From NCBI GenBank assembly GCA_963693365.1, contig CAVNZM010000001.1:1114054-1178053 (forward strand): a DNA stretch of 64,000 nt. Reading direction: 5' to 3'. The DNA is from Amoebidium appalachense (taxonomy: Eukaryota; Protista; Ichthyosporea). Made by a program: the position numbers and the translations under genes. Under the pieces are notes generated by a model that was not told the DNA's origin, made no database searches, and worked only from the letters and a program-made list of their open reading frames with translations. Below are positions 5,510 to 57,152 of this stretch, piece after piece. The stretch's first letter is position 1. Every line of letters starts with the position of its first letter.

Positions 5510-6244
5510 CATCGGAAACCCCTCTTCGACGTCGACGACGGGTTCGGAGTAGTTTACGATACCTGAGTGGCTGCGTTTGGTACCCTCGACATTTTTTTTA
5601 ATGGATGGAAAAGCTGAAAACCCATCGCCGACGTCGACAAGCATATTACAGGGTAATAAAGAGGTCCACTGATTTTTTGACCCTCATGTGTATATGCCAA
5701 CGTCATCATATGGACATGCTGTGCATGCCTTTACACCGTCCATTAACCGAATGTAGCACCTATTCCAATGCTATAGACGTGCTATGGACGTCGTAAGCCT
5801 GTTCTACGTATGCATACTGTGTAGGCTAACAAGATGGGTATCGTCGACGTCGAAAACAAAGCATACTGTGAAGGCGATTCTGAGCATCTTAATATGAGGT
5901 TTCCGACGTCCGTAAACTAATAAGAAACGGCGAATTCTGCAATAATAAATACTGTTTTTATAATGTTACAGTATAAGTACAATAGTTTTATGTGTATGTA
6001 TATATATATATATATTGGGGGTAAGGGGTGTCCTGTGAATGAAAACATGGTTTAGTTCTAACGTGAAATGTACTAATGTACTACAGGAAACATGTGCTTA
6101 CCAACTGGAATATTCTACCCCACACACAACCATACACGTATGCATGAGAATGGGAGGGGGGAAGAATAAATGAATAGAAAAAGAAAACAGTATACAAATA
6201 ATAAACAAATAAATAAATAAATAATAAATAAATAAATAAAAAAA

Positions 6245-6333
6245 GGATTGGAGTGGATTCGAACCGCAGTCTTGGGCAAAATTATCCTCCTTCGAGCTAC
6301 TGCCTTGCCCAGGTACGCCATTCGGTCACTTCC
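6245..6333 (-). ncRNA. tRNA-like Pol III unit (SINE head or small RNA)
   Basis: Minus strand has A-box-like TGACCGAATGG, a consensus B box GGTTCGAATCC (6255-6265), internal stem TGGGCAA/TTGCCCA and an oligo-T terminator directly after. It does not form a canonical cloverleaf. Confidence 0.5.
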
Positions 6334-7031
6334 GAAAGCATGGGAAACCCGAACACTATATAGCGTACAATACTTATTATTATTATTATTATTATTCCTT
6401 ATTTGCGTGGACGACGTCTATGGAAATAGTCAGGGGTATAGGGCATACCCACCCACCCAAAATAAGAATACAAACAACCACGTCAATGGCCAAAAACAAA
6501 CAAAGAAGAAGAACAAAAGAGGGGAGGGAAAAAAAAGAAAAAAAAAAGCTGGCGTGGGGAGGATCGGGTGGCGTACCTGGGGCAAGGCGCCGAAATCGAA
6601 GGAAAATCTGAACACCATATATTGTACATTAATACATCAATATAGCGTTGCTAAGCAGTGACTGTGGCATAAGGAAAAAAATAATGGGAAGTGCAATATT
6701 GTTGCAATCAAAAGAAGTAAAAAATTAGCAATGTCGCATTTAGTTACATTCACATTTCACTATGAAATGACGTGCTAATCAAACATACCTACACAGTTTA
6801 GCAGGTACAATATATACTAGTTCTCGACATACATGAAACATGCGTACACAATAAACTGACACTCGAGGATATGCTCTCAGCTTTTCCATTATATAGTCGA
6901 CGATATACATCAAACATCATAACACAATAATAAATAAATCCACCGATATCCATCAGATCATCGAAATATGGAATCATGATTTGATTTCAGAAGACATTTC
7001 TCCCGAAACGGCGACACCGCATGCACAGCAA

Positions 7032-54300: not shown

Positions 54301-56039
54301 GTGACGTGACTCGGGCCAGGGAGGGGCTTGGTGAGGATGTCGGCCAAGTTGTGAGCTGACTCGACGTAATGGACAACAACATCCCCACTGGCAATGTAGT
54401 CTTTGGGGGGGGGGGGGGGAAGGGGGGAAGGGGGTGGGGAGAGGGGGGGGGGGAAGGGGGGGGGAAGGGGGGGGGGGGGGGGAGAGGGGAAAAAAAAAAA
54501 AAACCCTGAGTTCAACCTCCTCATCGAAGACTACCACCTCGGTGATAAGATGTTCCCCGACTTCGAGTCCCTGCACAACCACATCAAGGGCATCGAGTTA
54601 CGTCAAGACCTCAAGATGCAACTCCGGAACAACCGTGCCTGTTGGAATACGTCACCATGTATGACAGCAAGAGCCTTGAAGTATGTATGTGTCTTAGCTT
54701 GTTTGTATTCGTGTCTGCTTTCCTTCTTTGTGCTCTCTCTCTCTCTCTCTCTCTCTCTCTCTCTCTCTCTCTCTCTCTCTCTCTCTCTCTCTCTCTCTCT
54801 CTCTCTCTCTCTCTCTCCTCCCCCCCCCCCCCCCCCCGTATCTCTCTCTCCCTTGTTTCCGTGAGCACAGATATCTGTAGATCTGTGCACACCTGGCTCT
54901 CTTGCCTGATAAGAACTTATTGTATTTTATTTCTGTTTGCTCTCCTCTGTTTATCTGAGAGGTAGCGTGATTGGCTAGCCACACTCGTTGTCTTTCCTTT
55001 ATTTCAAAATGGCTTAGTTTTGTTCTCAAAAGGATGGCTCGCCAATAGTCGCGAGCGAGTACATCTGTAGATCGTGTTGTGCATTCCTGTCTATTAATAT
55101 ATGTGTGTTGTGATTGGACAATAGATATATATGGAATTCGGTTTGTTGCAAAGTGTCTTCACTTTGAGAGTGTCGACTATTAGGAAATATATGTATTTAA
55201 ATAAGTTTCTTCATAGAGACGAACATAAATATATATGTGAGTTAATAGTGACTAGATGTATAATTACTTAATTTATTTAAGTAAGAGTTTCTAAACTTTA
55301 GTTTAATCGGAAGTTGGAATGCGTATGCTCTGTCGAATGTATTTTTCTATCTTCTGATAGAACCGATTGGTTCTCCCTCTTTAGTTGTGATAAAGTGATA
55401 AGTCGCAAGTACAAAATGAACCGAGAGCACAATAAAGATTCAGTTGTTGTTTGAAATCTTTCAATGTCTCGTGAACAACTCCGATTGCCCTCTCATTAAT
55501 GTGTTAGTCGTGTTTTACATGACACCTCTGTGCACTCTGCTCCCTTAGACCCGTACAAAAACAACAATGCGTGTTAGAGCTGTGACCTTGACTATGTCAA
55601 ATACATATAATAATGTTCTCATAACTACACTTCATATTCCCCACTAACCCCCCCCCCCCCCCCCTAGAACGTCAAAAGCTGGGACAAGATCTCCAAGGCC
55701 CGTGCCGATGCGGTGAAAGATCTGGACCTGGCGGATGACTACAAGGCCAACAAGAACGCCAAGCAGCAGGACGCTGCAAAGGAGAGGGGCCCCAAGTCTG
55801 TCAAGCGGACTAGGGAAGACGTCGACGACAGCAGCGAGGCCCAGGGCGGTGGCCTAAGCAAGAAGGGCAAGAGTACGGTTGGGTCGCCGGTAGCCCCGGC
55901 CCCGGCTCCCAACCAGCAAGGTGATGAAGAGGGTGGTGAGGAGGAAAATGGGTGGGTTGAGGAGGGGGATGGCGTGAAGGGCAATGAGAAGGTGGAGGAG
56001 GAATTGGATGAAGAAAATGGGGAAGGGGGGCAAACTTGA
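24386..56039 (+). CDS. Transposon-borne JmjC (KDM4/JMJD2-like) histone demethylase fused to an unknown C-terminal domain; 8 exons, about 930 aa, disrupted by two exonic Copia insertions
   Basis: Exons about 24386-24655 (uncertain, one frameshift near 24440), 24819-25587+32853-33049, 33413-33626, 35290-35518, 36006-36335, 36747-36989, 37505-37634+47277-47320, 55668-56039. All GT-AG and phase-consistent after removing TSD-bounded inserts. JmjC motifs FAGHVED, GYKVWF, CENPLQHK, VVQGPGDLI, HYGFQCGPNVSFAVN, W...CSC. Confidence 0.85.
24819..25587 (+). CDS. JmjC domain, N-terminal part (exon 2a)
   Basis: HxE metal ligands at 25346-25354. Aligns by eye with KDM4A FAWHTED...GEPKSWY...CEAFLRHK...VTQEAGEFMIT. 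Confidence 0.88.
25588..32847 (-). mobile_element. Copia family A element (copy A1) inserted in the JmjC exon
   Basis: 5' LTR 31922-32847, PBS GGTTATGCAGCCC, PPT AAGTGGGGA before 27025, 3' LTR region 25588-27025 (rearranged), TSD CAAAC at 25583-25587 and 32848-32852. Confidence 0.95.
27452..31859 (-). pseudogene. Copia gag-pol (Gag CCHC, protease, GAG-pre-integrase, integrase, RT, RNase H) with frameshifts
   Basis: CSYCHEPDHTIIDC, WDSGC, WHHRLGH, HWDFF...FDSGSEF...NGYVER, KARGVAQGFSQ, QLDVSTAFLN, YVDD, RPDIAY, ADILTK; order PR-IN-RT-RH. Confidence 0.93.
32853..33049 (+). CDS. JmjC domain, C-terminal part (exon 2b)
   Basis: Continues in frame across the TSD: TTPLALHYGFQCGPNVSFAVNTATKKWLNRLGEYEACSC. 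Distal His codon at 32869. Confidence 0.88.
33632..33850. repeat. Intronic tandem repeat, about 73 bp x 3
   Basis: TTTGTTATGTGAATCATGTTGTTG recurs at about 33640, 33714 and 33787. Confidence 0.85.
34310..35242 (-). mobile_element. Solo LTR (Copia A, LTR subtype 2) in a JmjC gene intron
   Basis: TGTT...AACA termini, 933 bp, TSD ATTTC on both sides, near-identical to 50791-51724. Confidence 0.93.
38387..38535 (+). repeat. Minisatellite (18-21 bp unit, CTCTCCTATCCTTTTCC..) at the 5' end of the LINE
   Basis: About 7-8 tandem copies, translating as LSYPFP repeats. Confidence 0.85.
38387..41087 (+). CDS. Non-LTR reverse transcriptase (RT ORF to 40504, C-terminal Cys/His domain in a shifted frame 40518-41087)
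   Basis: GPDG, FRPITL, QSAFR, FIDWKTAYDSV, GLLQGSLLSPFLF, LYADD, KCGVL, YKYLGV; C-terminal WR...CP...H...C...C. No endonuclease recognisable in this copy. Confidence 0.88.
41669..45906 (+). pseudogene. Copia A gag-pol with an in-frame integrase deletion and a poly-C frameshift
   Basis: Same protein as copy A1, but GGSK is joined to DTRAF (57 aa missing); RT-RH in ORF 44008-45906. Confidence 0.93.
48585..54013 (+). pseudogene. Copia B gag-pol, disrupted
   Basis: CAYCHEDHHVTHC, WDSAS, WHHRLGH, HMDFF...SDSGSEF...NGFVER, YVDD, ADIFTK. Broken by a 64-bp tandem duplication (49348-49475), a solo LTR and a poly-C frameshift. Confidence 0.92.
50791..51724 (-). mobile_element. Solo LTR (Copia A, subtype 2) inside the Copia B integrase
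   Basis: 934 bp with TSD CGGCC; integrase frame INVTPA/RAANGRTP resumes after it. Confidence 0.93.
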
Positions 56040-57152
56040 AGCGTGAGAGATCTGAGAGTGAGGAGGAGAGCGAGGATGAGGAAGGAGGGAGGAGTCGAAA
56101 GCGGGAGAGGAAGGATAGTGAGAATGAGGGTGGGGAGGAAGAAGGAGAAGAGGGTGGGGAGGAGGAAGTCGAGACTTAGAAATTTGTTGTATTGCAGTCT
56201 CGCTCCTGTGGAACGAGACAAAAAAGTACATCGACTCTGCTCCTGTGGAGCGAGACGCAAAGAAACGTCTTTATGTGCTCTTCTTACCGTCTATTGTCAT
56301 ATTCAAGTTGTATGTGTCCTTACAGTGATTTTATGACGTTTGATGTATGATATCATTATCATACATGGAACATGCCATTATGCATGTAAGGATGGTTTTA
56401 TGACGCACCAAAAAGCACATTGTGCATGTGCATAGCACACCGTTACAACATATGCAAGTGCACATTACGACGTCAAATGTATTAATATGCGTCATCTACA
56501 TTATATGTCGTAATGTCCTCCTATGCATCTGTTTACAACATCGTAATGTAGTCTGTAGTAGGATGCAAATCACATCTTATGATAGGTCATGGGATAGCAC
56601 AAACCCACCCATGGTATATCCACTGGTTGTGTTTCGGATGTCGGAAAGAGCGCCGGAACGATTGGATTTCGATCTATTTTTATAATCAACTGGATGGGTT
56701 TGCAGTGCTCCAATTGCATTGCTTTACAACATACAATAGACATACATGTGATAGTCATAGGTATTTGATCAAGAGAGTATTAATACCATACATTCGATAC
56801 GTTTACAATGCTCCGTTATATGGCTTTACATCAGACCATAGACATGCATAAGATCGTCCACAGGGTGGCGTTCTGATCCTCCCGTCGACGGTGTTACGAC
56901 TGTCTGAATGCTCCCTGGCCGCCGTCATATACCCACCGACTAGACGTCGTATGTTGAATCTATTGCACGTCCATTGCACGTCGGTAAGATGGCTACATTG
57001 CACATCCATTGAACAAGCACTCGCGGGGGTCTATGTACGTCCATTGGTGCATCGGGTGTCGGACCGAGCATATTACGACACATCCATTGGACATCGGGGA
57101 GCAATGATATGTATTTGGGGTTAGTTTTGGAGGGGTTGAGGGGTTTCCGATG

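Follow-up and report, generated by a model that had tools for sequence, protein, structure and literature searches.

Can a DNA transposon carry, as a regular part of its own gene set, an enzyme that removes repressive marks from histones? The question is raised by a 64,000-nt stretch of the Amoebidium appalachense genome (the window, to whose full length all positions refer), in which a Plavaka transposase gene and a gene with a KDM4-like JmjC domain lie between short inverted repeats, beneath a nest of retroelements. The reading that we favour, on somewhat better than even terms, is that positions 5490-57203 hold one cut-and-paste DNA transposon of the PlavakaB type, with a predicted intact transposase and a KDM4-like JmjC second gene whose product would likely remove the element's own repressive histone methylation. 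The initial annotation had proposed a single autonomous element. One large Plavaka element is indeed what two clean gene models, terminal inverted repeats (TIRs) with a target-site duplication (TSD), and motifs common to both ends point to, but 'autonomous' holds for the transposase open reading frame (ORF) only. The analysis rests on a single copy of the element.

Self-comparison of the window and Pfam scans of 300 of its 322 stop-to-stop frames of at least 75 aa (the 22 excluded frames lie beyond 58100) identified two long interspersed nuclear elements (LINEs), three Copia elements and one solo long terminal repeat (LTR) between the 15-bp repeats at 5510 and 57152 by which the element was first delimited. 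Each of these six first-level inserts is flanked by exact direct repeats, as the initial annotation had claimed, and their removal leaves 18,381 bp with those ends, again in agreement with the 18.4 kb given there, or 18,452 bp with the ends at 5490 and 57203. In situ the corrected element covers 51,714 bp, and the younger retroelements removed from it amount to 33.3 kb. Two second-level inserts had been overlooked, a LINE at 38387-41421 and a solo LTR at 50791-51724, and these leave the subtraction unaffected. The LTR pairs of the inserts are 98.4-100% identical, and the nest is therefore young; mutations between the young copies show neither a CpG bias nor one resembling repeat-induced point mutation. 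Within Copia C, short pieces of the Copia A/B family (an RNase H end and a gag piece, 54292-54639) replace the normal polypurine tract (PPT) before the 3′ LTR. As the TSD of Copia C matches, this mosaic predates the insertion.

The minus-strand gene is identified as a transposase gene by matches of exons 3 and 4 to PF18759 (73.6 and 34.2 bits against a cut-off of 26.3; E-values 2e-20 and 2e-8). Its predicted product begins with a C2H2-like motif and carries, in order, SDQT (316), TDWPE (420), CHKC (441, the C(2)C motif), HAGVH (710, the H(3)H motif) and WERAH (731). The residues that we take to be the D, D and E were assigned from their motif context. Because the LINE of insert 1 and both tandem arrays are intronic, the transposase ORF is intact in this copy. 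The order D, D, C(2)C, H(3-4)H, E matches the CMCT clade as given by Kojima (PMC12730594). Together with PF18759, the ends and the 2-bp TSD, it makes PlavakaB the most likely placement, the choice between the A and B clades being made on these features.

Relatives of the transposase are distant: P0001 is 25% identical over 458 aa, and L001, a metagenome locus with a distant Plavaka (1/86), is 35% identical over 175 aa and has no match to the second gene. A word-based protein search with the last exon returned no longer relative among 2811 candidates. The C-terminus may resemble a BAH domain, but gave no match in NCBIfam or the PDB. Two of the introns contain tandem arrays whose periods stand in a ratio of exactly 1:2. 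Such periods, 183 and 366 bp, are near the nucleosome repeat length, and the accessory protein might use the arrays as platforms for binding or positioning. Their sequences are unrelated, and the 366-mer did not prove to be a dimer; the 183-bp unit was also rejected as an exon, its reading giving stops. Adjoining the 183-bp array in intron 1 is a duplicate (16997-17080) of the 3′ end of intron 3 (12337-12420), comprising the acceptor and six exon bases.

The plus-strand accessory gene is broken in this copy, with Copia A and Copia B both in exons. The two JmjC halves flanking Copia A match adjacent parts of KDM4D (122-259 and 264-304), and a seven-sequence profile recovered all KDM4/Rph1 structures at E-values of 1e-44 to 1e-39, compared with 1e-33 or weaker for KDM5-type structures. 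The exon keeps the HxE...H triad, the Cys/His/Cys/Cys set and the Lys, and by motif the 2-oxoglutarate (2OG) Tyr (YLSD versus YGAD), but not the 2OG Asn; we take the kept residues to have the iron, zinc and cofactor roles known for the family. A search of the accessory exon pieces with Pfam found none of the PHD/Tudor readers of KDM4, so the accessory protein is best described as KDM4-like and not as a canonical KDM4 orthologue.

For the JmjC exon, HMMER searches of 1.84 billion representatives gave seven hits, and the Atlas gave JmjC clusters at 0.90-0.93. The closest relative is P0003 (Logan), which matches the exon along its full length at 31% identity and has the ligands kept. It also has a K/G/S-rich N-terminal stretch, and a Met at the same place as the start of a 339-aa ORF that the exon holds (ATG 24836); the match ends at about the end of the exon, the later exons being unmatched. 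A word-based protein search found no longer relative among 6381 candidates, and none of four candidate stretches in viral contigs proved to be a JmjC relative. The top E-value, that of P0002, was disregarded because it comes from 15 repeated stretches. This protein record from a whitefly, which contains half a JmjC domain 15 times in tandem, is probably an assembly or annotation artefact.

The remaining exons of the accessory gene gave no Pfam match at E-values up to 1, in a scan of nine exon pieces whose shortness limits sensitivity. The later exons had no NCBIfam or Atlas match, an Atlas search of exon 5 returned nothing usable, and a word-based search with exon 3 yielded 1 of 174 candidates. 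AlphaFold models were poor, with mean predicted local distance difference test (pLDDT) values of 36 and 42. Exon 4 (35291-35518) contains a short helical motif that may resemble DNA-binding folds of the SAP/LEM type, with no Pfam hit at E-values up to 1. The GC content of synonymous third codon positions (GC3s) is 0.50 in the JmjC exon (150/302) versus 0.79 in the other accessory exons (456/576; Fisher P = 1e-18). Being intronless, of phase 1-1 and different in codon usage, the JmjC exon looks like a cassette captured later into an older accessory gene.

Is this cassette a working part of the gene? The two-gene layout of the initial annotation is borne out by the two gene models, but there may be three units. 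Skipping of the JmjC exon preserves the reading frame from exon 1 into exon 3 (595 codons with a single stop, at the end), and the exon can stand alone as the 339-aa ORF. It might then be a passenger, an intronless KDM4-like ORF in accessory intron 1 that is spliced out or expressed by itself and is useless for transposition, and the in-frame skip, the stand-alone ORF, the distinct codon usage and the corresponding Met of P0003 are all in keeping with this. Nevertheless, the exon has preserved its metal and zinc ligands and most of the cofactor positions at an identity of about 30% to the nearest relative, a sign of purifying selection over a long time. It also has its two splice sites in the phase required, and P0003 is likewise K/G/S-rich upstream of the domain. 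We consider a passenger improbable.

Alternatively, the entire plus-strand gene could be a host gene caught once between Plavaka ends, by Pack-type capture or local rearrangement, and thus not a feature of the family. The high GC3s of the non-JmjC exons (0.79 versus 0.62 for the transposase, P = 2e-13) would suit such an origin, as would the lack of any accessory-gene homologue tied to a transposase. Against it, the gene is enclosed by matching TIRs with a TSD, the whole lying within a retroelement, has a compact divergent spacer in common with the transposase, and belongs to a unit whose size and layout match those of known giant Plavaka elements with accessory genes; a single captured host gene is accordingly quite unlikely. 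We hold it fairly probable that the JmjC gene is a regular part of the element family.

Several observations tell against a functional demethylase gene. The 2OG-binding Asn of KDM4 is Ser in the JmjC exon, and the Pfam JmjC score (for the N-terminal half) is 17-18 against a cut-off of 24 bits. Splicing of the exon into the long gene is a prediction only, and Pfam found no histone-reader domain on the exon pieces of the accessory gene. In addition, the ATG at 24386 can be used only by way of a 44-nt intron or a shift of 1 bp within a short stretch of A. Indels between near-identical repeats of the window fall mostly in homopolymer runs, and assembly noise is therefore a plausible source of this shift. 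By analogy with other systems, an anti-silencing role for the JmjC cargo has, in our estimate, a little less than an even chance.

The ends of the element were established by comparing inverted pairs. The repeat first taken as the TIRs is CATCGGAAACCCCTC at 5510-5524, whose exact reverse complement occupies 57138-57152; the window has no further perfect match to it. The two copies do form a perfect inverted repeat; as termini they are less convincing, since the flanks (CCCC before the left copy, TCGT after the right) contain no TSD and a better pair is located 20 and 51 bp outside. This outer pair, CATCTGCAATCTT at 5490 and CATCAGCAATCTT on the minus strand at 57203, is identical at 12 of 13 positions and has AA outside both copies. 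An inverted pair of 12/13 starting with CATC arose in 5 of 1000 dinucleotide shuffles of the end zones, and in 1 of 1000 with a 2-bp TSD. Over 41 nt the pair retains 26 identities, the top value among 1733 CA..TG pairs with a TSD, and each end has a second CATC, in the same register, at position 21.

The outer ends also agree with the family. PlavakaB elements end in CATCA..TGATG and have a 2-3-bp TSD (Kojima 2025, PMC12730594); here the right end is exact and the left, CATCT, matches at 4 of 5 positions, as in PlavakaB-1_GyCo. In the supplement to that paper several fungal PlavakaB families start with CATCAGCAA and one with CATCTGG, and the first nine bases of the right end are those of several fungal PlavakaB ends. 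We conclude that 5490 and 57203 are, with good probability, the boundaries of the element, and that the 15-bp repeat is most likely subterminal.

Two other placements of the ends were weighed. For the 15-bp repeat as the true terminus, with the outer pair a chance match or relic, one can cite its perfect identity (15/15), its uniqueness in the window and the CATCGG starts found in PlavakaB (PlavakaB-1_AuCo); about two perfect 15-bp inverted pairs are expected by chance in 64 kb by our estimate, and any perfect 15-mer within plausible end zones was seen in 2 of 1000 dinucleotide shuffles. This placement has little probability, given the absence of any 2- or 3-bp TSD (CC versus TC), the TSD and better family match of the outer pair, and an element-internal 11-mer that occurs at 5549, inside the left end, and again at 57160, just beyond 57152, both occurrences being enclosed by the outer ends. 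A shorter autonomous element at 6908-56345, inside a 2.3-kb non-autonomous Plavaka-type element that supplied the outer TIRs, is also unlikely: its 14/15 inverted repeat has exact CATCA..TGATG ends and TA flanks and lies 124 bp beyond the stop codon of the transposase and some 300 bp beyond that of the second gene, but the TA match is automatic in a repeat that is palindromic there (17/18 with the flanks), a 170-bp segment (78% identity) is common to transposase intron 7 (8029-8198) and the outer right zone (56378-56549), and GACGTC, a motif picked after inspection, occurs in the outer zones and the interior and not once in the flanks.

The outer boundaries are not without difficulties. The third pair, at 6908/56345, ranks first or equal over 13-30 nt, a 2-bp TSD is expected by chance in 1 of 16 cases and was seen at a single insertion, and the motif statistics used motifs chosen after the sequence had been viewed. 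Either a small family of insertions or a repeat internal to the element might account for the 170-bp segment. In the left part of the element, 6245-6330 (minus strand) resembles a degenerate tRNA, with motifs similar to the A and B boxes, a T5 run and, at about 6568-6602, a partial inverted copy. Neither ARAGORN nor Rfam called it, and its fold z-score is -1.95.

The flanks had been described as the two halves of one minus-strand LTR element. LTR pieces, a primer-binding site (PBS) at 57585 and a PPT at 94, in the appropriate order and strand, support this, and two pieces of Copia C interior (3544-4037 and 2160-2484) are present. Contiguity of the halves is another matter. A junction to another Copia truncates the host 5′ LTR to its last 418 nt, the two host LTR pieces cover no common sequence, homology to the Copia C interior is absent from about 1.8 kb surrounding the point of insertion, and there is no protein-level support (the score was reached by 13-200 of 200 shuffles). 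The AA duplication is the sole basis for host-flank contiguity. A gag-like frame through the 5510/57152 junction was rejected, its similarity to the gag proteins of the window not exceeding that of shuffles and the stretch lying inside the outer TIRs.

The other Copia (57998-63971, minus strand) is joined to the host 5′ LTR within its reverse transcriptase (RT) region at a short microhomology (57998-58002), the product of a deletion that took away the 3′ part of this Copia together with half of the host LTR. At the opposite end of the window, 234-1854 is a Helenus-like terminal-repeat retrotransposon in miniature. Each of its two LTRs carries a tRNA-Ser(GGA)-type gene (the one at 1645-1717 intact, 57 bits with Rfam), its 81-bp interior has PBS-like and PPT sequences, its TSD is AGGAG (5 bp), and a LINE 3′ fragment (357-1265) interrupts the first LTR; it fits the description in PMC10886601. 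At 2455-3339 (plus strand), antisense in the host element, is a frame resembling a retroviral-type aspartyl protease (Pfam E-value 3e-4, below the cut-off).

The two genes of the element are arranged head-to-head, and the claim that they start about 1 kb apart was accurate: once the LINE of insert 2 is subtracted, 970 bp separate the ATGs at 17991 (minus) and 24386 (plus). The spacer contains 10 CCAAT boxes, a number reached in 7 of 2000 shuffles, and the only two TTTSSCGC sites of the window (20 of 2000 shuffles), each motif having been tested after it was seen. These may be NF-Y and E2F sites. The shared divergent spacer and its motif enrichment are consistent with the bidirectional promoter suggested earlier at about 18000-18900, and such a promoter would be shared by the two genes and perhaps linked to the cell cycle. 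Coordinates are collected in Table 1.

Table 1. Features of the giant Plavaka element, its retroelement inserts and its flanks.
Feature	Position	Strand	Basis or remark
Host element: first part of a Copia C-family 3′ LTR, PPT before	1..94	-	97.7-100% to Copia C LTRs
2-bp TSD AA, left copy	5488..5489	.	Flank comparison
Left TIR CATCTGCAATCTT, most likely true left end	5490..5502	+	12/13 to right end; 26/41 in register
Left subterminal zone: many short GACGTC/GTCGAC-type motifs, short inverted matches to right end	5490..5990	.	Motifs picked after inspection
15-bp repeat, left copy; likely subterminal, putative transposase-binding	5510..5524	+	Perfect inverted repeat, no TSD
Third inverted repeat CATCAAAC.TCATAA, TA flanks; rival inner end	6908..6922	+	Partner 56331-56345
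Plavaka transposase gene, 8 predicted GT-AG exons, 1,054 aa, no internal stop	7032..17991	-	PF18759; gene model
Transposase exons	17991-17464, 15586-15431, 12893-12529, 12342-12097, 9858-9351, 9017-8860, 8618-8315, 7931-7032	-	Predicted
366-bp tandem array, 4.9 copies, transposase intron 4	9989..11786	.	Repeat detection
Insert 1: 5′-truncated LINE with RNase H, transposase intron 2	13055..15033	+	Interval counts one TSD copy
183-bp tandem array, 7.1 copies, transposase intron 1	15704..16998	.	Repeat detection
AT-rich intergenic spacer, candidate bidirectional promoter	17992..18891, resumes 24316-24385 past insert 2	.	GC 0.40
Insert 2: LINE (RT + RNase H) between promoter and second gene	18892..24315	-	99% to insert 1, same family
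Accessory gene, 8 predicted exons after de-nesting, 909 aa from 24442, no internal stop	24386..56039	+	Gene model
Accessory exons	24386/24442-24655; JmjC exon; 33413-33626; 35290-35518; 36006-36335; 36738-36989; 37505-37629+47272-47320; 55668-56039	+	Predicted
Intronless 945-bp KDM4-like JmjC exon of phase 1-1, interrupted by Copia A	24795..33004 (24795-25582 + 32848-33004)	+	KDM4D alignment
JmjC ligands: His, Glu, His; Zn-type Cys/His/Cys/Cys	25346, 25352, 32869; 25475, 25493, 32959, 32965	+	Alignment to KDM4D
Insert 3: Copia A interrupting JmjC exon	25583..32847	-	TSD CAAAC; LTRs 98.8% identical
Insert 4: solo LTR, intronic	34305..35242	.	5-bp TSD
Insert 5: Copia B interrupting exon 7, contains LINE 38387-41421	37630..47271	+	TSD CGACC; LTRs 100% identical
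Insert 6: Copia C, intronic, contains solo LTR 50791-51724	47553..55566	+	LTRs 98.4% identical
15-bp repeat, right copy, likely subterminal	57138..57152	-	Inverted match
Right TIR CATCAGCAATCTT, most likely true right end	57191..57203	-	Inverted pair with 5490
2-bp TSD AA, right copy	57204..57205	.	Flank comparison
Host element: last 418 nt of Copia C-family 5′ LTR, then PBS	57585..58002	-	98.0-98.8% to Copia C LTRs

These features suggest how the element might operate. From what is known of the family, the transposase would bind the CATC-type terminal and subterminal repeats, mobilize the element by cut-and-paste through its short TIRs, and leave 2-bp duplications. One divergent promoter would co-express the transposase and the accessory gene, and the latter would have acquired its JmjC core at a later time, as a cassette of phase 1-1 lacking introns. 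By analogy with KDM4, the substrate might be H3K9me2/3 or H3K36me2/3; the C-terminal part of the accessory protein would provide targeting, and the JmjC cargo would clear the chromatin of the element itself of repressive histone methylation. The present copy most likely landed not long ago in a decayed element of the Copia C family, after which retroelements hit it. As it stands, the JmjC gene is disrupted and the transposase ORF is not. In its fullest form, this model is of an active giant PlavakaB family encoding an exon-shuffled KDM4-type demethylase, which an element-specific protein targets to the tandem arrays or subterminal repeats, which is co-expressed with the transposase from a CCAAT/E2F-type divergent promoter, and which erases the H3K9 methylation of the element. 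All of this together we think rather unlikely.

The initial annotation compared the layout with CACTA TnpD/TnpA or MuDR. CACTA/EnSpm (TnpD + TnpA), MuDR (mudrA/mudrB) and VANDAL (VANC) likewise combine a transposase with a second gene and subterminal repeats, and VANDAL adds internal tandem arrays and the idea of element-encoded anti-silencing. The present element differs in its CATC rather than CAC(TA) ends, its 2-bp rather than 3- or 9-bp TSD, its short TIRs and its divergent genes. Canonical CACTA/EnSpm termini (CAC..GTG with a 3-bp TSD) were not found, all three candidate pairs starting with CAT; nor were the Mutator-like transposase, long TIRs and roughly 9-bp TSD typical of MuDR. TnpA, MudrB and VANC gave no hit in the second gene (Pfam, nine exon pieces, with the same limit on sensitivity). 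The analogy is thus a loose likeness, and a better comparison is with the accessory genes for chromatin enzymes in the Plavaka elements of red algae and of fungi.

Among the latter, the PlavakaB elements of Agaricomycotina, including the TET+ families Plavaka-11_AB and PlavakaB-1_GyCo (PMC12730594), resemble the present element in PF18759, C(2)C, H(3-4)H, CATC(A/T)G ends and a 2-bp TSD. The TET+ elements described there also carry a 2OG-Fe(II) dioxygenase cargo, for which anti-silencing at the DNA level has been proposed, and their sizes (9.9 and 24.4 kb) bracket that of the present element. Here, in contrast, the cargo is a KDM4-like histone-demethylase domain and not TET/JBP, and the genes have long, microsatellite-rich introns. 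No close relative of the transposase was found, the best being 25-35% identical over long stretches. Giant Plavaka elements of Bostrychia moritziana (17.4-19.1 kb; bioRxiv 10.1101/2025.02.11.637652) are similar in size, chromatin-enzyme accessory genes, internal tandem arrays and proposed self-modification. Their three accessory genes, PAG1-3, encode N6-methyltransferase (MTase) + SET and ParB + 2OG oxygenase domains, which were not found in the present element, and the main text of that report contains no 'JmjC'. It describes only VANDAL/VANC as shown to modify its own sequence.

Amoebidium itself offers a parallel. Sarre et al. (2024, PMC11244446) described KDM4-like JmjC-only genes in its endogenous giant viruses and proposed that they act against silencing by H3K9me3. 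In those genes, too, a genomic parasite carries a divergent catalytic core that lacks PHD/Tudor. The viral genes have several exons, whereas here one intronless exon resides in a TIR transposon. The Plavaka giant repeats of Amoebidium in the same paper are described with tyrosine-recombinase clusters, and JmjC is not mentioned in that description. Our literature search for Plavaka/EnSpm and JmjC, covering mostly open-access main texts, found no transposon-borne KDM4-like gene. Plavaka elements equally large and equipped with chromatin enzymes were already known, in red algae (SET, 2OG oxygenase) and fungi (TET); what is apparently new is the KDM4-like cargo, described from one copy.

For annotation, the locus illustrates that repeat tools would fragment an 18-kb element across 52 kb. 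Transposons with chromatin enzymes of their own are rare, and separate lineages of Plavaka elements have gained TET, SET/MTase and further 2OG oxygenases. With its ligands kept, the KDM4-like core extends this cargo list to histone demethylation, and both the enzyme and its target are directly testable. The finding also bears on the origin of JmjC-only KDM4-like genes in genomic parasites. If the proposed function is correct, a self-targeted eraser of H3K9 methylation would be the histone-level counterpart of the TET-bearing transposons of fungi and of VANC in plants.

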